From positions 1 to 20,507 of the forward strand of contig JANNXQ010000215.1 of the NCBI GenBank assembly GCA_031409655.1: DNA of 20,507 nt. Direction: 5' to 3'. The notes below the pieces were generated by a model. The model saw only the letters and a list, made by a program, of their open reading frames with translations. It had not been told where the DNA came from and searched no databases. The position numbers and the translations under genes are program-made. Shown piece by piece: positions 2,188 through 9,199 of the stretch; within the stretch, counting starts at the first letter, position 1; each line of letters opens with the position of its first letter. Source of the DNA: Chthoniobacteraceae bacterium (lineage in GTDB: Bacteria > Verrucomicrobiota > Verrucomicrobiia > Chthoniobacterales > Chthoniobacteraceae).

Positions 2188-3159
2188 TCACACCTTCCCG
2201 CGAAATCCCAGATACGCCTCGATCGCGTCCAGATACGGCCGGCGCGTGTCGATGAGCCGGTGCTGGATCTGTCGCTGATCCGCCGCCTGCGCCAGCGCGG
2301 CGATCGAGTGCTGCATCTTCGCGCGATAGTTTTCGCGGATGTCCTCGGGGTCCACCTGCACCTGTTCGCCCGTCTCCATGTCCGTGAATTTCGCCGCACT
2401 GAAGGCCGGCAGATTCAGCTCATCGGGATCGGTGACGTGCAGCAGCAGGATCTCAAATTTCCGATGCACGAACTGCGCGAGCGCGTCGAAGAGCGGCTCG
2501 GTGTCGTCCAGGAAATCCGAGAGGATCACGATGCGCCCGCGTTTCTTGAAGAGCGCGTTGCACTCGCTCACCGCCGCCGCGATGCCCGTGGTCTTAGCCG
2601 GGCGCACGCGCTCGAGTTCAGTGACGATGCGATGCAAGTGCCGCCGCGTGCCGCCCGGCGCGAGATACTGCGTCACCTTTTGCCCGAAGAGCACCAGCGC
2701 CGCCTTGTCCGCCTGCGCCATCATCAGATACGCGAGCGCCGCCGCCGTTTTTGCCGCGAGCAGAAACTTCGGCTGCCGCCCGCCGCCCGCGTAGCGCATC
2801 GAGCCGCTCGTATCCACCATCAGGTAGGCCACCATGTCTGTCTCCTCTTCAAACTGCCGCACATACAGCCGCCGCGTGCGGCCGTACACGCGCCAGTCCA
2901 GCCGCGAGACATCGTCGCCCGCCACGTATTCCTTGTAGTCGGCAAATTCCGCGGACGATCCCCGATACGGCGATTTGTGTTTGCCCGAGTAGTAGCCCTC
3001 CACCGTCGCCTTCGCGAAGACCAGCAGGTTTTCGAATCGCTCCAGCTCCTGCAGATTCAGCAGCAGCGGCGGCGGCTCCGCAGCCCGCGCGCGTTTCGGC
3101 AGCACCCGCACCGTGGACGCAGGATGGCCCGGTTTGGGCGGAAGGGGCGGCGGCTCCAT
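2188..3159 (-). CDS. DUF58 domain protein (MoxR-associated, vWA-like)
   Basis: VEGYYSGKHKSPYRGSSAEFADYKEYVAGDD..LDWRVYGRT..YVRQFEEET, VDTSGSM, ILSDF. ATG at 3159. Confidence 0.93.
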   Translation of the reverse strand: MEPPPLPPKPGHPASTVRVLPKRARAAEPPPLLLNLQELERFENLLVFAKATVEGYYSGKHKSPYRGSSAEFADYKEYVAGDDVSRLDWRVYGRTRRLYVRQFEEETDMVAYLMVDTSGSMRYAGGGRQPKFLLAAKTAAALAYLMMAQADKAALVLFGQKVTQYLAPGGTRRHLHRIVTELERVRPAKTTGIAAAVSECNALFKKRGRIVILSDFLDDTEPLFDALAQFVHRKFEILLLHVTDPDELNLPAFSAAKFTDMETGEQVQVDPEDIRENYRAKMQHSIAALAQAADQRQIQHRLIDTRRPYLDAIEAYLGFRGKV

Positions 3160-3236
3160 GCAGGCTAGCCGTAGCGGATTTCGCCTCGTGAGCAAGCTCC
3201 CGCGAGGCGCGGTAGTGGCTCAATTTGAAAGAACCC

Positions 3237-3391
3237 CTGTCATTCCGAGCGGAGCGGAGCGGAGTCGAGGAACCTCACGCTCCTGCGGGCAGCGGCGGTG
3301 CGGAGCTCGTCGAGCGGTTCGGCTCCGCGCGACCGCTGCCCACAGAAGTAAGAGGTTCCTCGACTCCGCTCCGCTCCGCTCGGAATGACAG
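3237..3391. repeat. Long palindromic element (MITE/REP-like) with perfect 40-bp terminal inverted repeats
   Basis: 3237-3276 ctgtcattccgagcggagcggagcggagtcgaggaacctc is the exact reverse complement of 3352-3391. There is an imperfect inner stem at about 3280-3306/3322-3348. Confidence 0.9.
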
Positions 3392-3474
3392 ATTTGGTTT
3401 CCCGAATCCATCGCAAGATGAAGCATTAGCTGAAGCGCGCACCTTTGCCGCGCCCGCGGTGTTCCAGTCCGACC

Positions 3475-4683
3475 ATGAAACGCTTCGTCTCCTGCCTGCT
3501 TCCCCTCCTGCTCAGTTTCGCCACACTCTCCGCGCAGTCGGCGGGTGAAAAGATCGACTTTGAAAAAGCGCGCCAGCTCAACCAGCGCAGCGAGCGTGGG
3601 GAGACGCTCAGTGCCGAGGACGCCGCCTACCTCGAGCGCGCGAAAGCCCTGCGCCAGAAGTCCGGGGCCGATGGCCCCGATATGCAGAAAGCCCGCGCAC
3701 TCCACGAACGCAAAGCGCGCGGCGAAACGCTCTCCGCCGAAGATCAGGTCTATCTCGACAAAGCCATGGCCGCCCGCGCCAAGGGCGGCGGCGCCGCGCC
3801 GAATCAGCGCAAAGCCCCCGAGCGCCTCACGCCGCTCAGCGACATGACCGCCGCGGATCGTTACGAAGGCGAAGACGGCGGCCTCTACGGAGCCGGCAGC
3901 AATGTTCCTCCCGCCGCGCATCGCCAGGCCGCCGCCGCGCAGCTCGCCCGCATCCAGCCGCTCGACGCCAGCGGAAAACCCGCCGCCGATGGCCGCATCG
4001 TTTTCGTCTCCATCAGCATGTCAAATGCGACCCAGGAATTCTCCACCTTCAAGCGCCTCGCCGACGCCTCCGCGCTGAAATCCGCAAAGGTCACCATCGT
4101 CGATTGCGCGCAAGGCGGGCAGGCCATGGCCCAGTGGGCGCCGCCCGCCGCGCGCCCGTGGCAGGAGGCAAAAGATCGCCTCGCGCGCGCCGGCGTCACC
4201 TTGCCGCAAGTGCAGGTCGCGTGGATCAAACTCGCCAACGTCGCCCCCGGCGGCTCGCTCCAGGAGCACGGCAAAAAACTCGAAGCCGACACCCTCGCCG
4301 TCCTGCAGAATGCGCGCGCCCTTTTCCCCAATCTCCGCATCGCCTACCTCGGCAGCCGCATCTGGGCTGGCAACGCCACCACCGGCCTCAACCCCGAACC
4401 CTACGCCTACGAAAGCGCCTTCGCCGCCCGCTGGCTCATCCAGCGCCAGATGAAAGGCGACCCCGCGCTCGCTTTGGAAAAATCCCCGCTGCTCCTCTGG
4501 GGCCCCTATCTCTGGGCCGAAGGCACCCGCGGTCGCAAGCTCGACACCCTCACCTGGCAACCCACCGACTTCGGCCCCGACGGCACCCACCCGAGCGACA
4601 GCGGCCGCGAAAAAGTGGCGAAGGTCCTGTTAGATTTCTGCACCACCGACCCGCTGGCGAAGGATTGGTTCGCCGCTAAGTAA
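3475..4683 (+). CDS. Secreted hypothetical protein with two N-terminal 33-aa helical repeats and a C-terminal SGNH-hydrolase-like domain
   Basis: Signal-peptide-like MKRFVSCLLPLLLSFATLSA; duplicated KAR....RGETLSAED..YL motif; SISMSN / AQGG / KLAN / DGTHPS resemble SGNH blocks I, II, III and V (inference). Confidence 0.75.
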   Translation: MKRFVSCLLPLLLSFATLSAQSAGEKIDFEKARQLNQRSERGETLSAEDAAYLERAKALRQKSGADGPDMQKARALHERKARGETLSAEDQVYLDKAMAARAKGGGAAPNQRKAPERLTPLSDMTAADRYEGEDGGLYGAGSNVPPAAHRQAAAAQLARIQPLDASGKPAADGRIVFVSISMSNATQEFSTFKRLADASALKSAKVTIVDCAQGGQAMAQWAPPAARPWQEAKDRLARAGVTLPQVQVAWIKLANVAPGGSLQEHGKKLEADTLAVLQNARALFPNLRIAYLGSRIWAGNATTGLNPEPYAYESAFAARWLIQRQMKGDPALALEKSPLLLWGPYLWAEGTRGRKLDTLTWQPTDFGPDGTHPSDSGREKVAKVLLDFCTTDPLAKDWFAAK

Positions 4684-4724
4684 GCGCGCGTGCCCGTCCG
4701 CGATCGGGCCGCGCTGGGATTTCT

Positions 4725-5273
4725 TCAAGCGCTCATCGCGATCGGGCGGCGGATCATCGCGCCCGGCCGCCGAGCATGAGGAGCGGGGGAAGACTTGGAG
4801 ACTTGGAGAGGAGGAGACTCGGGCGCGAAAATAATTGAAAAAAGTTTCCGGGAAGGCAGCTCCGGCGCGTCACCAGCTATTAGGTTACAACGATCCCGAA
4901 ACTCCGGGACGTCATAATCTGATAGCTCCTGGCGGAACCGAAGGTCCGGTGCATCACAAGCTAATAGCTCGTAAGACCTCGGAGACTCCGGCACGCCGCC
5001 AGCCATTAGGTTGTGGCGGTCCTGTAACTCCGAGTCGTGAAAACCTGTTAGCTTTTGCCGGGTCGGAAGCTCCTGGGTACTAAAACCTATCAGGTTGTGA
5101 CGAGTCTGATCCTCGGAGGTGCCACGAGCTACCAGCCTGTGACGCTCCCCACTCTCCCACCCGGCAAGAGCTACCGGATTGCGCCGCCACCGAGCCGGGG
5201 AACCGCCACGAGCCATCAGCTTGTGACGCACCGGACCTTCGGTCCCGTCAAAAGCTATCAGCTTGTGGCGCAC
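4725..5273 (-). CDS. Possible 14-aa repeat protein translated from the 42-bp array (doubtful)
   Basis: GTG-started frame is open through the whole array (RHKLIAFDGTEGPV-type repeats). It may only be a by-product of the 42-nt period. Confidence 0.2.
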   Translation of the reverse strand: MRHKLIAFDGTEGPVRHKLMARGGSPARWRRNPVALAGWESGERHRLVARGTSEDQTRHNLIGFSTQELPTRQKLTGFHDSELQDRHNLMAGGVPESPRSYELLACDAPDLRFRQELSDYDVPEFRDRCNLIAGDAPELPSRKLFSIIFAPESPPLQVSKSSPAPHARRPGAMIRRPIAMSA

Positions 5274-5279
5274 CGGAGC
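4860..5279. repeat. Tandem array of ten degenerate 42-bp units with palindromic consensus
   Basis: Units start at 4860, 4902, 4944, 4986, 5028, 5070, 5112, 5154, 5196 and 5238 with no indels. Consensus by eye: CTCCGGTGCGTCACAAGCT-ATC-AGCTTGTGACGCACCGGAG-N. Confidence 0.9.
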
Positions 5280-5482
5280 CTCGATCTGCCACCCGCCATC
5301 GCCCCGTCCCCCAGGGAAAACACCCAGCCCCGCCCAGGCGAGAGATCCCGGTCTGGCGGAGAGCGATGGGTAACGGCTTGAGGCACCTCGCAGCGGATTC
5401 GCCGCCTAGCAGAGCCTGCGCCACCTCCGCGCCGCGCCCCAGCGCTTGACGCCCGCCCGCCCCCTCGCTCTCACTTCCCCCC

Positions 5483-8044
5483 ATGCCCACCCGCCCGAAG
5501 CCCCCCACCCCCGGCGAAGATTCCCCCGGCATGGCCGAGGCGCGGAAACGCATCGAGCTGGCCCGGCGCGAGGGGAGCACGGGGCTCCGCTTGAATGGCC
5601 TGAAGCTCACTAGCGTGCCGGAGGCGGTGTGGCAGTTGAGTGCGCTGCGAGATCTTCGTCTCAACGGCAATCAACTGACGAGCGTGCCGGAGGCGCTGGG
5701 CCAGTTGAGTGCGCTGCGAGCGCTTGACCTCTCCAGCAACCAACTGACGAGCGTGCCGGAGGCGCTGGGGCAGTTGAGTGCGCTGGATTGGCTTCGTCTC
5801 GACGGCAACCGACTGACGAGCCTGCCGGAGGCGCTGGGGCAATTGAGGGCGCTGCAAGTGCTTTGGCTCATGGACAACCGCCTCGTGAGTCTGCCGGGCT
5901 CGCTGAGAGATTTGCCCAAGCTGGAGCGCTTGGGCCTGCACGGCAATCCGGCCCTGAAGCTCTCGCCCTCCGTCCTCGGGGCCGATTCGCGGGAGGTAAC
6001 CACCGGATTCGCCTCCGCGAAGTCGATCCTCGATTTCTATTTCAGCCGGCAGACCAGCCAGACGCGCCCTTTGAATGAAGTGAAGCTGATCCTCGTGGGC
6101 CGGGGCGGCGCGGGGAAGACCTCCACGGTGCGGGCCTTGCGCGGCGACCCCTTTCGCGAGGGCGAGGAGAGCACGCCGGGAATCGCGCTCTGCGACTGGG
6201 TGATGAAGGGATGCAAGGGGCAGCCGGTGACGGCGCATGTGTGGGATTTCGCCGGGCAGGTCATCACGCACGCGCTGCATCAGTTTTTCTTCAGCGTGCG
6301 CAGTGTGTATGTGGTGGTGCTCACGGGCCGGGAGAATCATGAGCGGGAGGACGCGGAATACTGGCTGCGGCTGATCCAGGCCTTTGGCACGGATGAGGAT
6401 GGCAAGGGCCCGCCGGTGCTGGTGGCGCTGAATAAGTGGGATGTAGAAGGCTGCCGCCCGCGAGTGGATCGCGGGGCGCTGCTGGAGCGGTATCCTTTCA
6501 TCCGCGGCTTTGTGGAGCTGGACTGCAAGTCGAAGAAGGGCGTGGTGAAGCTGCGGGCGGCGCTGTGCCGGGAGGTGGATCGCCTGAAGTGGGTGCGCGA
6601 TCCTTTTCCAATGGAATGGGATGCGGTGCGCCGCGCGCTGGGCGACGGACGGAAGAAGCAGGCGCATCTCACCTACCGCGAATACCGCGCGCTGTGCGCG
6701 AAGCACGGCGTGAAGGACGAGGGCGAGCAGGATTCGCTGGCGGAGATCCTGCACAATCTCGGCGCGGCGCTGAACTACCGGAATGATCCGCGTCTGCACG
6801 AGGCCACGGTGCTGCAGCCGGAGTGGCTCACGGAGAACGTGTATGCGCTGATGCGCCGCGCGGAGAAGCAGGCCGGCGTGCTAAAGCAGGCGGATGTGGA
6901 TAAGGTGCTGCGGAAGGAAAAGGACCAGGCGATGCGGGCGTATCTGGTGCGGATCATGGAGCGCTTTGAGATCGCCTATGCGCCGCGGTCGGCCGCGGCG
7001 GGGGTGTGGCTGGTGCCGCAGGCGCTGCCGGATGCGCAGCCAAAGGGCGTGGAGGTCTTCCGCGATGCAAAAGTGGCGACGCGGCTGCGCTATTCGTACG
7101 AGGCGCTGCCGGAGGGGCTGGTGGCCCGGGCGATCGTGCGGCTGCATGAATTCATCGAAGAGGCGAGGGGGAAGAAGCTGCAATGGGGCAGCGGCGCCGT
7201 GCTGACGCGCGAAGGCGCGCGGGCGCTGCTGCGCATGGAGCCGGAGAGCAAGGTGATGATCGTGGTAACGGGCCCGGCGAAAGCGCGCCAGCAACTCGCC
7301 GGACTCTGCCAGGCGGAGATGCGGGACATTCACGAGGAAATCCCCGGGCTCGATCCGCTGGAAGAGACGCAGGTGCAGGGCGCGTGGGTGGCGACGGCGA
7401 CGCTGGAGCTGGATGAACGGAACGGGCGGAAGACGGGCGTCTCGATCAAGGATCGCGGCACGGTGGACGTGGACCCCGCGGAACCGAACAACGCGTATTC
7501 GGAAAAGCCGGCGCGGAATGATGGGGTGTGGAAGCCGAGTGTCTTCATCAGCTACTCGAAGAGCAACGTGACGCAGCGGAAGCGGCTGGAATCCGAGCTG
7601 AAGATCTTGAAGAACGAGGGCCTGCTGGCCGGCGCGTGGCAGGACCGGATGATCGACCCTGGCGACAAGTGGGATGACAAGATTCAAGACGAACTGGCGA
7701 AGGCCGACGTGGTAATCGTTCTCGCGAGCGTGGCCGCGCTCTCGACGGATTACATCACCCAGCACGAAATCCCGAAGGCGCTGGAGCTGCACGAGGCGGG
7801 GGAGACGATCGTGGTGCCGGTGGTGCTGGAGGCGTGCCGCTTCGAAGAGAGCGCGCTCGGACCCCTGAACGCCCTGCCGGAAAAAGGGAAGCCGCTCACG
7901 ATGTGGAGGCCGCAGTCGAATGGCTGGAAGACGGTGGCGGACGGACTGGCGAAGGTCTTCAAGAAGGTGATGGCAAAGGAAGGCGCGGGAGCCGCGCGGC
8001 CCGAGCGCCCGGCGCGGGGCGGGGGAGCGAGAGGGCAATTGTAG
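5483..8044 (+). CDS. Roco protein: LRR - Roc GTPase - COR - TIR (TIR_2-type)
   Basis: 23-aa LRRs (LTSVPEALGQLSALxxLxLxxNQ); Roc motifs GRGGAGKTS, STPGI, WDFAGQ, NKWD; COR (LHNLGAALNY..VLQPEWL, LVPQALP, YEALPEGLVARAIVRLH); TIR VFISYS..WQDRMIDPGDKWDDKIQDELAKADVVIVLAS..STDYITQHE. Alternative start at 5531. Confidence 0.93.
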   Translation: MPTRPKPPTPGEDSPGMAEARKRIELARREGSTGLRLNGLKLTSVPEAVWQLSALRDLRLNGNQLTSVPEALGQLSALRALDLSSNQLTSVPEALGQLSALDWLRLDGNRLTSLPEALGQLRALQVLWLMDNRLVSLPGSLRDLPKLERLGLHGNPALKLSPSVLGADSREVTTGFASAKSILDFYFSRQTSQTRPLNEVKLILVGRGGAGKTSTVRALRGDPFREGEESTPGIALCDWVMKGCKGQPVTAHVWDFAGQVITHALHQFFFSVRSVYVVVLTGRENHEREDAEYWLRLIQAFGTDEDGKGPPVLVALNKWDVEGCRPRVDRGALLERYPFIRGFVELDCKSKKGVVKLRAALCREVDRLKWVRDPFPMEWDAVRRALGDGRKKQAHLTYREYRALCAKHGVKDEGEQDSLAEILHNLGAALNYRNDPRLHEATVLQPEWLTENVYALMRRAEKQAGVLKQADVDKVLRKEKDQAMRAYLVRIMERFEIAYAPRSAAAGVWLVPQALPDAQPKGVEVFRDAKVATRLRYSYEALPEGLVARAIVRLHEFIEEARGKKLQWGSGAVLTREGARALLRMEPESKVMIVVTGPAKARQQLAGLCQAEMRDIHEEIPGLDPLEETQVQGAWVATATLELDERNGRKTGVSIKDRGTVDVDPAEPNNAYSEKPARNDGVWKPSVFISYSKSNVTQRKRLESELKILKNEGLLAGAWQDRMIDPGDKWDDKIQDELAKADVVIVLASVAALSTDYITQHEIPKALELHEAGETIVVPVVLEACRFEESALGPLNALPEKGKPLTMWRPQSNGWKTVADGLAKVFKKVMAKEGAGAARPERPARGGGARGQL
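5603..5947 (+). repeat. Five 69-bp LRR-encoding tandem repeats
   Basis: Units at 5603, 5672, 5741, 5810 and 5879. The framework caactgacgagcgtgccggaggcgctggg.cagttgagtgcgctg is nearly identical in the middle units. Confidence 0.9.
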
Positions 8045-8111
8045 GGCAAGCGCTCCGCTTGCCTGCGCTTGCCTCCGCTGACTTGGCAGGCGGGGCGCCT
8101 GCCCTACAATT
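8037..8111. repeat. Inverted GTAG-type REP doublet
   Basis: 8037-8063 aattgtagggcaagcgctccgcttgcc matches the reverse complement of 8085-8111 (aattgtagggcaggcgccccgcctgcc) with 3 mismatches. Each arm is GTAG followed by a hairpin. Confidence 0.85.
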
Positions 8112-8122
8112 CTCGCGTTCCC

Positions 8123-8179
8123 CTCGTTCCCAAAGTGCGGAGTTTTGGGAATGCTCCTGCTGGGCGCAACTGTGTTGCG
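8123..8179. repeat. Double-hairpin REP-like element (CTCGTTCCCAA...TTGGGAA type)
   Basis: Stems ttcccaaa(8127-8134)/tttgggaa(8144-8151) and cgcaac(8165-8170)/gttgcg(8174-8179). Single copy in the window. Confidence 0.45.
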
Positions 8180-8215: not shown

Positions 8216-9199
8216 TCAGTAATTTTTCTCCCCGACCACCTGCAGCAGGTCGCTAACGATGTCGCGGGCCTTCTTGCCGGCGCCGGTGGCGCGGTAATTC
8301 GTGATCACCCGGTGCTGTAGCACGGGGAGCGCGACTTCGCGGACGTCTTCCGTTTCCGGGGCGAGTTTTCCTTTGAGCAAGGCTAGGGCTTTGGCGCCGA
8401 GGATGAGGTATTGCGAGGCGCGAGGGCCGGCGCCCCATTCGACGAAGTCCTTCGTGACTTGCGGGGCGGCGGGATTGGCTGGGCGCGTGGCAGCGGAGAG
8501 GCGCACGGCGTAGTCGATGACGTGATCGCTGACGGGGGCGGCGAGGACGAGTTGCTGGACGTCGCGGATGTCCTCGAGCGAGGCCACGGCGTCGAGGGTT
8601 TCAGCGGTGCGCAAGGTGGTGCGGCGGACGATCTCGATCTCCTCCTCGTGCGCGGGGTAGTCGAGCTGGAGCGAAAACATGAAGCGATCGAGCTGCGCTT
8701 CGGGGAGCGGATAGGTGCCCTCTTGCTCGATGGGATTCTGCGTGGCGACGACGAGGAAGGGAGCGGGCAGGGGACGCGATTCCCCGCCAACGGTGACGCG
8801 ATGCTCCTGCATGGCTTCGAGCAGTGCGGACTGGGTCTTGGGCGGTGTGCGGTTCACCTCATCGGCGAGGAGCAGGTTGGCGAAGATCGGGCCGGCGAAA
8901 TATTCGAACTCCAGTTTGCGGTCGCGCTCCTGGAGCAACTCGGAGCCGATGATGTCGCTGGGCATCAGGTCGGGAGTGAATTGGATGCGTTTGAAGCTGA
9001 GCGTGAGCGTCTCGGCGAGGCTGCGGACGAGGAGGGTTTTTGCCAGGCCCGGGACGCCGATGAGCAGACAGTGGCCTCGGGAGAAAAGGCTCACGAGCAG
9101 CAGCCGGATGATCTGCTCCTGGCCGACCATCACTTTGCCAAGCTCCGCGACGATCCGCGAATAGACGATGTGAACAGCCTGGGGTGAAAGCGAATCCAT
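8216..9199 (-). CDS. MoxR family AAA+ ATPase
   Basis: GVPGLAKT, RIQFTPDLMPSD, LADEVNRTPPKTQSALLEAMQE, ATQNPIEQEGTYPLPEAQLDRF. Confidence 0.96.
   Translation of the reverse strand: MDSLSPQAVHIVYSRIVAELGKVMVGQEQIIRLLLVSLFSRGHCLLIGVPGLAKTLLVRSLAETLTLSFKRIQFTPDLMPSDIIGSELLQERDRKLEFEYFAGPIFANLLLADEVNRTPPKTQSALLEAMQEHRVTVGGESRPLPAPFLVVATQNPIEQEGTYPLPEAQLDRFMFSLQLDYPAHEEEIEIVRRTTLRTAETLDAVASLEDIRDVQQLVLAAPVSDHVIDYAVRLSAATRPANPAAPQVTKDFVEWGAGPRASQYLILGAKALALLKGKLAPETEDVREVALPVLQHRVITNYRATGAGKKARDIVSDLLQVVGEKNY

Follow-up and report, generated by a model that had tools for sequence, protein, structure and literature searches.

The window analysed here is a 20,507-nucleotide stretch of DNA from a Chthoniobacteraceae bacterium (GenBank assembly GCA_031409655.1, contig JANNXQ010000215.1), and the gene under study within it encodes a Roco protein, in which leucine-rich repeats (LRRs) are followed by a Roc GTPase domain, a COR domain and a C-terminal TIR domain. 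We propose, with a probability of about 0.6, that this protein is an immune receptor that acts on its own: the LRRs would bind an invader protein and thereby lead, through a GTPase cycle, to TIR assembly, NAD+ destruction and arrest of the cell. The proposal is supported by the accessory insertion that holds the gene, by its patchy and expanded distribution, by the variable face of its LRRs, by an invariant glutamate in the TIR domain and by Septu fusions among its relatives. The idea of such a receptor is not itself new, as it has been published as a prediction (PMC8195603); the family is known, an immune role was already predicted for it in 2021, and this gene is a further member. New here are the empty-site evidence, a tyrosine-for-tryptophan feature of the TIR, the fusions of relatives to Septu and the finding that an upstream array is separate from the system. 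A first-pass annotation of the window had also suggested an immune receptor, a suggestion that gains indirect support from the evidence listed above, whereas the defence-island signal among homologues is weak.

An intact gene for an LRR-Roc-COR-TIR protein

The gene is an intact open frame that encodes a protein of 853 amino acids (aa), P0001. Pfam places LRR, Roc, COR-A, COR-B and TIR_2 in that order along the protein, all above curated cut-offs, with the LRR_8, LRR_4 and LRR_14 matches at about aa 48-150, the Roc match at aa 201-320 (E 5e-20) and the TIR_2 match at aa 687-795 (E 2.3e-12; Table 1). An AlphaFold model of the protein (mean pLDDT 83.6) has six LRR strands, and its best Foldseek match is the C. 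tepidum Roco protein, CtRoco (6hlu, E 6.8e-36, 25% identity). The LRR-Roc-COR-TIR layout that the first-pass annotation had read from the bare letters was thus confirmed, and the order of Roc followed by COR is that of the Roco family. No NACHT or NB-ARC (STAND) domain was matched by Pfam in the protein. The Roc motifs had been described as intact, which holds for G1 to G4 (GRGGAGKTS at 206, Thr231, DFAGQ at 255 and NKWD at 317). The usual G5 motif is SAK. Here the G5 position reads DCK (347), which is atypical yet conserved, as D347 is kept in 120/120 sequences of a family alignment made of the query and 119 listed homologues. The P-loop lysine, K212, is present in 113/113 sequences that cover it.

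The gene is real, intact and probably functional. Contigs from the read run X1, which is possibly the source sample, showed 0 differences from positions 4387-5776 and 5812-8175, which cover an upstream array of 42-bp units and nearly the whole gene. Comparison of read-run contigs with the locus revealed no credible empty-site or LRR-number variant, and joints of low likeness were mostly repeats. A search for an upstream sigma-70 promoter gave no match. No RNA run was listed as carrying this stretch, which is no measure of its expression.

The TIR domain carries the residues of an NADase

A profile of 23 TIR sequences matched Cat1 (E 2.4e-9), AbTir (E 2.8e-5) and plant TIRs, whereas a phmmer search of the PDB with the lone TIR returned no TIR match. 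In the profile alignment, E762 falls on AbTir E208, D721 on D167, S690 on S140 and Y757 on W204, and the activity of AbTir needs each of S140, D167, W204 and E208 (PMC11374754, excerpted text, with the same residue numbering). The codon at 7766-7768 that had been assigned to the catalytic position is GAA and encodes Glu762, in agreement with the first-pass annotation. This residue is found in 114/114 covering sequences (120 aligned, 6 gapped), and the glutamate is also present in 58/58 TIRs from more distant fetched loci and in 16/16 of the COR + TIR_2 + AAA_21 fusions described below. The helix C glutamate and the equivalents of AbTir S140 and D167, by which a TIR NADase is recognised, are all present as E762, S690 and D721, and on these residues the TIR is likely an NADase. 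In AbTir, activity goes together with filament assembly (PMC11374754, excerpted text). A model of the TIR from its single sequence had low confidence (pLDDT 57) and weak matches to TIR and flavodoxin-like folds, and it was not used.

The active site also features a fixed tyrosine, as Tyr757 is present in 115/115 covering sequences, and the motif spacing of Y-x4-E is one residue longer than the W-x3-E of AbTir. The AbTir residue W204 is required for the cyclic product 2'cADPR and is conserved among cyclising TIRs (PMC11374754, excerpted text, citing Manik et al.). Because Tyr757 occupies the position of this tryptophan, which is the mark of cyclising TIRs within their WxxxE motif, the predicted product is more likely ADP-ribose, released by hydrolysis, than a cyclic signal.

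The same sensor and switch could instead control a TIR whose Thoeris-like nucleotide signal activates an effector encoded at another locus of the genome, which we consider unlikely. In PADLOC, the TIR matches a ThsB model best (E 1.6e-31), and some distant homologues occur in apparent operons with candidate effectors (L105 and L094, described below), both of which favour a signal. However, Tyr757 replaces the residue needed for 2'cADPR, no effector gene adjoins this gene or its closest homologues, and the main text of a 2025 preprint on TIR signalling systems (10.64898/2025.12.03.692087) contains no passage on LRRs, GTPases or Roc. Thoeris is recognised by thsB together with thsA, and here the upstream gene has no PADLOC match and the downstream gene encodes MoxR. 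The catalytic glutamate and the S/D residues are common to this TIR and those of Cat1 (9mud), AbTir (7uwg, 8g83) and ThsB; this TIR differs in its fusion to a GTPase, in the tyrosine before its glutamate and in the absence of thsA, a cyclase or a CRISPR partner alongside. We keep to a receptor whose own TIR would act on NAD+.

Variable LRRs on a conserved enzyme core

A Roc-COR-TIR query yielded 448 matches among 7,999 scored candidates. Apart from the query, 119 matches were listed (58-83% identity); TIR_2 is present in 115 of these, and the named matches come from Verrucomicrobia, Planctomycetota and one member of the Pseudomonadota. The gene is nothing special in its family, as at least 115 of its close homologues share this layout. 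On average, the LRRs share 48% identity with the query, Roc 81%, COR 73-74% and the TIR 69%. The number of LRRs ranges from 2 to 15 in the 105/120 aligned proteins with a countable array, while the 15/120 without one are mostly fragments. Within the LxxLxLxxN unit, entropy is highest at positions 3, 5, 7 and 8, which form the concave face. The ratio of nonsynonymous to synonymous differences (pN/pS; 13 genes, uncorrected proportions with pS near 0.6) between repeats is 1.07 at these four positions, 0.68 at the remaining variable ones and 0.18 in the scaffold, whereas between genes it is 0.20 for Roc, 0.27 for COR and 0.28 for the TIR, which indicates purifying selection. As far as sequence comparison goes, this pattern is that of a changeable binding surface on a conserved enzyme core.

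The LRRs weakly match the XopAC, XopAE, SlrP and internalin models, and many homologues carry the JGI label 'internalin A', which might point to an exported protein with LRRs and a TIR that subverts a eukaryotic host or predator in the manner of a TcpC-type TIR or an LRR effector. We consider this very improbable, as the scores concern the LRR part only and lie far under the curated cut-offs (e.g., 91.6 versus 450), on which ground the secreted-effector labels were dismissed. Moreover, a by-eye check of the sequence found no signal peptide or membrane segment, and secretion genes were not found beside the gene. An immune receptor is the reading that we carry forward.

The tail behind COR also varies within the family. 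Tails other than TIR occur at L002 and six other loci, and TIR + AAA_21 tails occur as well. The locus L002 is the second Roco gene of this genome (L002:6667-9360, contig C241 of G000), and its tail of roughly 180 aa matches no Pfam family. The L002 tail is weakly DUF4404-like; a DUF4404 cluster is among its Atlas feature neighbours (score 0.90, with the family on 21% of members), which serves as a lead only. When the genome contigs were scanned with one query alone, a single locus was recovered.

The gene lies in an insertion and is patchily distributed

Orthologues of both moxR and the adjoining DUF58 gene are present in 17/120 family genomes, in tandem in 13 and on separate contigs in 4. 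The two matches are 5,068 bp apart in the window, compared with 19-1,138 bp in the 13 tandem relatives. Because the pair is tandem in 13/17 relatives and 5,068 bp apart here, we infer that moxR and DUF58 are split by an insertion of about 5 kb, which contains a hypothetical gene, the array and the Roco gene. Inverted repeats that resemble repetitive extragenic palindromic (REP) elements lie at both edges (Table 1), and the stop codon of the Roco gene is within the GTAG tag of the right-edge repeat. The second Roco gene of this genome, on C241, is flanked by the same two REP types.

Roc-COR matches (E up to 1e-20) are found in 23/120 family genomes, with 1-14 in each, including 2 in this genome (G000), 7 in G026 and 14 in G019, although these are not exact copy numbers. 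None of the 3 same-genus genomes, one of which is 74% complete, has a Roc-COR match, and the control gene tsaD is present in 20/20 relatives. These comparisons indicate that the Roco gene is accessory. The first-pass annotation had named core-genome conservation as evidence that would count against its proposal, and the patchy presence and split moxR-DUF58 pair are the opposite of such conservation. In G019, which is 72% complete, the 14 matches lie on contigs C556, C316, C410, C260, C580 and others, and five of them are 69-76% identical to this protein over Roc-COR-TIR. The hypothetical gene inside the insertion encodes a probably secreted, hydrolase-like protein with sub-threshold Pfam matches only; its orthologue (67%) in same-genus G001 has a uracil phosphoribosyltransferase gene downstream of it and neither the array nor a Roco gene.

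A gene in such a setting might be a selfish or near-neutral mobile passenger of repeat-rich hot spots that does not benefit its host and whose TIR is a scaffold or an addiction toxin. Two REP-like elements, the same in both cases, and a 21/42-bp array do lie beside each Roco gene of the genome, neighbourhoods vary between loci, and among the fetched homologues several are split or broken. We nevertheless regard a passenger as quite improbable, as the three core domains are under purifying selection with an invariant catalytic glutamate, no transposase or integrase gene adjoins the gene, and no copy or relative of it was found among viral contigs.

Distant relatives are linked to Septu

The best contextual tie to anti-phage defence, as judged from gene order and domain fusions, is a set of distant Septu-linked relatives. 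At L108:1925-6831, an LRR-Roc-COR-TIR-AAA_21 fusion is followed by an overlapping PtuB-like gene, and at L109:6062-10802 and L125:2-3927 AAA_21 and PtuB-like genes come directly after a Roco-TIR gene. Among the 120 matches listed for the L108 tail, 16 proteins carry COR + TIR_2 + AAA_21 and 3 carry COR + AAA_21 without TIR; the same tail of TIR and AAA_21 is also found behind a PNP/nucleosidase domain (P0124, P0125 and P0127, within P0121-P0140). Septu (PtuA/PtuB) serves as an effector module in Retron-Eco7 (PMC12640716, excerpted text). In these relatives, Roco-TIR is fused to or followed by PtuA- or PtuB-like proteins, whereas the gene in this window has no such partner. A phage test would be better founded if it began with the Septu-fused relatives.

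Other homologues lie in further gene clusters. At L094:4255-14467 (and also at L091, L096, L097 and L103), a Roco-TIR gene belongs to a co-oriented cluster with PLD, TPR-S, metallophosphoesterase and CHAT genes, and at L105:2341-10894 one is clustered, again co-oriented, with patatin and TPR-S genes. Clusters of the L094 and L105 types are candidate multi-gene conflict systems. At L047:3594-7112 in G012, the second gene upstream of a Roco-TIR gene encodes an nSTAND1 + LRR protein.

A proposed switch with a GTP-loaded monomer at rest

In the receptor that we propose, the LRRs would bind an invader protein, presumably from a phage, and binding would shift the Roc-COR GTPase cycle. The TIR domains would then assemble and destroy NAD+, with both their activity and its gating being predicted, and the loss of NAD+ would arrest the infected cell. 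Avs proteins and bacterial receptors of the nucleotide-binding leucine-rich repeat (NLR) type combine a sensor, a nucleotide switch and an effector in one gene, and the analogy to them drawn in the first-pass annotation stands as far as this one-gene logic is concerned. This protein differs from them in that it uses a Ras-like Roc-COR GTPase and no STAND ATPase, with the sensor first and the effector last. The simple form of the analogy fails on the switch, because TIRs must associate while GTP favours monomers. Without nucleotide or when bound to GDP, CtRoco is mostly dimeric, and with GTP it is a monomer (PMC5714945, excerpted text); GTP swings its LRR about 135 degrees away as the dimer part of CORB unfolds (PMC11052575, excerpted text). 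Prokaryotic Roco proteins have micromolar affinity for GDP and exchange it rapidly (PMC6337361, excerpted text). By analogy to these proteins, the resting form is most likely a GTP-loaded monomer that would hold the TIRs apart, and firing would occur when ligand-driven clustering or GTP hydrolysis unites them. The opposite polarity, in which a closed dimer is the off state, may apply. A complex prediction for two copies of COR-TIR (aa 371-835) scored 0.31 against a mark of 0.42, a result that counts neither for nor against binding.

A broader and distinctly more tentative possibility is that Roco proteins form a class of anti-phage receptors, in which a GTP-gated LRR chassis is combined with swappable killers and the switch may run opposite to that of NLRs. 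The killers would be a TIR NADase here and a TIR with Septu PtuA/PtuB in at least 16 relatives plus 2 operons, and the switch would rest as the GTP monomer and fire upon dimerisation after hydrolysis or loss of GTP. If true, this would be the first biological function for prokaryotic homologues of LRRK2, and it would hint at an immune origin of the Roc-COR module.

Gene neighbourhoods and the case against an immune role

Neighbours were collected from 82 de-duplicated Roco loci, with up to two called genes per side and 223 proteins in all, and were compared by PADLOC (E up to 1e-10) with a control of 130 genes from 20 stretches in six related genomes. Genes were called by a simple codon-scoring script that missed some, such as the AAA_21 gene in L109. 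PADLOC matched 28/223 neighbours (9/101 + 19/122) and 7/130 controls (p = 0.04), although the control genes span fewer taxa than the Roco neighbours.

Several observations weigh against the proposed receptor. Removal of 14 rows, namely a fragment of a split Roco gene and four repeat entries of a single neighbourhood, leaves 24/209 matches (p = 0.08), and the genome-matched neighbours, those from related genomes, give 5/63 versus 7/130 controls (p = 0.53). Many of the neighbour matches are generic kinases, helicases and housekeeping enzymes. The closest homologues (64-76% identity) lie among unrelated housekeeping genes, and the neighbours of close homologues include panC, dnaJ, RNase E/G, a 2-oxoacid dehydrogenase E2 gene and transporters. 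The co-occurrence of homologues with defence islands, put forward earlier as a check, was therefore weak, and from its neighbourhoods the gene does not appear to be a usual defence-island gene. No further defence gene was identified in the window, and PADLOC matches only the TIR part of the protein, with no model for the whole. The Septu-linked homologues are distant, at 36-42% identity. With respect to the LRRs, a pN/pS of about 1 reflects missing constraint and is no proof of positive selection, and any binding LRR would be expected to vary on its concave face. Finally, the monomerisation of CtRoco by GTP conflicts with a simple switch in which GTP and the TIR oligomer are on together.

The apparent lack of defence-island enrichment around close homologues would also suit a switch for dormancy or death that is triggered by stress or damage, such as a fall in GTP or a state of a host protein, with no foreign molecule to be recognised. 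The micromolar GDP affinity, fast exchange and dimerisation without GTP described above (PMC6337361 and PMC5714945, excerpted text) mean that nucleotide pools alone could flip such a switch. Even so, this explanation seems rather unlikely to us, as a pure nucleotide sensor needs neither LRRs that vary in number and binding face nor up to 14 matches per genome. A receptor for foreign molecules remains the reading that we prefer.

Relation to known systems

Proteins that join LRRs, an AP-GTPase, COR and an effector were predicted to act against invaders, by computation only, by Kaur et al. 2021 (PMC8195603, section 15, Fig. 6D). The string AP-GTPase+COR+TIR occurs 368 times in the source data of Figure 6 of that paper, and one protein in these data, B7Z37_03775, is P0061 of our set, which is 66% identical to the present protein over 811 residues. 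The AP-GTPase proteins of Kaur et al. have the identical domain order, rapidly varying N-terminal LRRs, a variable C-terminal effector and paralogue expansions, and their architecture does not differ from that found here. Fast-evolving N-terminal LRRs, a variable effector that includes TIR and several paralogues per genome, the features that mark this class, are all present in this case. TIR+ABC and COR+ABC each occur 0 times in the Figure 6 source data file consulted, and its five instances of COR+TIR+ name other domains, although other files or other labels may include a Septu-type ATPase fusion. Verrucomicrobial ternary systems with AP-GTPase+COR are mentioned in the excerpted text of PMC7159879. 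No experimental test that links Roco proteins to anti-phage activity was found in the searchable literature, which leaves most subscription journals outside it.

The LRR-Roc-COR core is common to this protein, CtRoco (6hlu, 3dpu, 8r4b) and Methanosarcina barkeri Roco2 (4wnr), with phmmer E values of 3.4e-60 and 1.7e-57. In contrast to both, this protein has only six LRRs and carries a C-terminal TIR, and H554 and Y558 of the CtRoco Roc-CORB hinge triad correspond to L297 and F301. Prokaryotic Roco proteins are structural models for LRRK2, which is linked to Parkinson's disease, and a biological role for them was not found in the searchable papers. A compact member with six LRRs and an enzymatic tail would allow loss of NAD+ to read out the control of an effector by Roc-COR and would thereby test the 2021 prediction.

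Features of the window

Table 1. Features in and around the insertion, in order of position.
Feature	Positions	Strand	Remarks
DUF58 gene	2188..3195	-	Left flank; usually directly downstream of moxR
Left-edge REP-like inverted repeat	3237..3391	none	19 match rows on 8 contigs
Hypothetical gene	3445..4683	+	Inside the insertion
42-bp array	4859..5280	none	Ten degenerate self-palindromic units; probably non-coding; inside the same insertion
CDS of the LRR-Roc-COR-TIR protein	5483..8044	+	Codon-model score +248
LRR array	5573..5986	+	aa 31-168; six LRRs of 23 aa each (69-bp repeat in the DNA); predicted to bind the ligand
Roc (AP-GTPase) domain	6074..6553	+	G1 aa 206-214 (K212), T231, D255-x-x-G258, N317-K-x-D320, D347-C-K
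COR-A subdomain	6608..7027	+	aa 376-515; Pfam PF16095, E 1.7e-32
COR-B subdomain	7082..7366	+	aa 534-628; Pfam PF25497, E 1.9e-15
TIR domain	7541..7960	+	aa 687-826; S690, D721, Y757, E762 = AbTir S140, D167, W204, E208
Predicted catalytic Glu762 codon	7766..7768	+	GAA
Right-edge REP-like inverted repeat	8037..8111	none	GTAG-tagged; 12 genome matches including this copy
MoxR AAA ATPase gene	8216..9199	-	Right flank

The upstream array is a genome-wide feature

The upstream array mentioned in the first-pass annotation is real, with ten 42-bp self-palindromic units, and there is little basis for the suggested comparison with and without it, as it does not accompany homologues. The units are imperfect palindromes, 54% symmetric at the best offset compared with 31-36% at the next best. 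A profile of the unit found only this locus in the genome, with nothing below E 0.5 at other loci, and a DNA search with the array gave 0/60 relatives that exceed a 24-36-bp match. A three-unit pattern was present in 6/400 class genomes, as 7-bp or 21-bp simple repeats or as different units. Of 72 LRR-bearing Roco loci, only L053 has a clear 21-bp upstream array and L084 a borderline one, both unrelated in sequence, although only 19/72 loci have at least 400 bp of upstream room.

A protein-coding array was rejected, as both long frames scored negative in the codon model (-28.5 and -18.1) and the minus frame had no Pfam match. A conserved cis element or guide RNA was likewise rejected, as homologues lack the array and no Rfam family was found at 4859-5280. 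The predicted RNA fold is strong (z = -10.8); because the units are palindromic, this provides no evidence of an RNA.

In this genome, 14/796 intergenic gaps of at least 400 bp carry arrays with a period of 21, 42 or 63 bp, whereas five control periods gave 0, and 13/17 of its periodic gaps have one of these three periods. The 21/42-bp arrays are mostly unrelated to one another in sequence, and their period equals two or four helical turns. Both Roco genes of the genome have a 21/42-bp array within 1 kb upstream, which reads as a sign of shared insertion hot spots. The array is, by these comparisons, real, one case of a genome-wide feature and apparently not part of the Roco system, and it may have a regulatory role.

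Periodic arrays were seen on contigs C108, C124, C128, C132, C178, C187, C215, C22, C241, C256 and C273, and also on C277, C38, C44, C66, C75 and C86. Several lie just upstream of genes for proteins of 150-280 aa, of which one has an fn3 domain and most have no Pfam match, or of IS200/RAYT-like or nucleotidyltransferase genes. Elsewhere in this genome, at L004:5603-6256 (contig C12 of G000), a stand-alone gene encodes a 217-aa LRR protein that resembles the LRR region of the Roco proteins and lacks Roc-COR.

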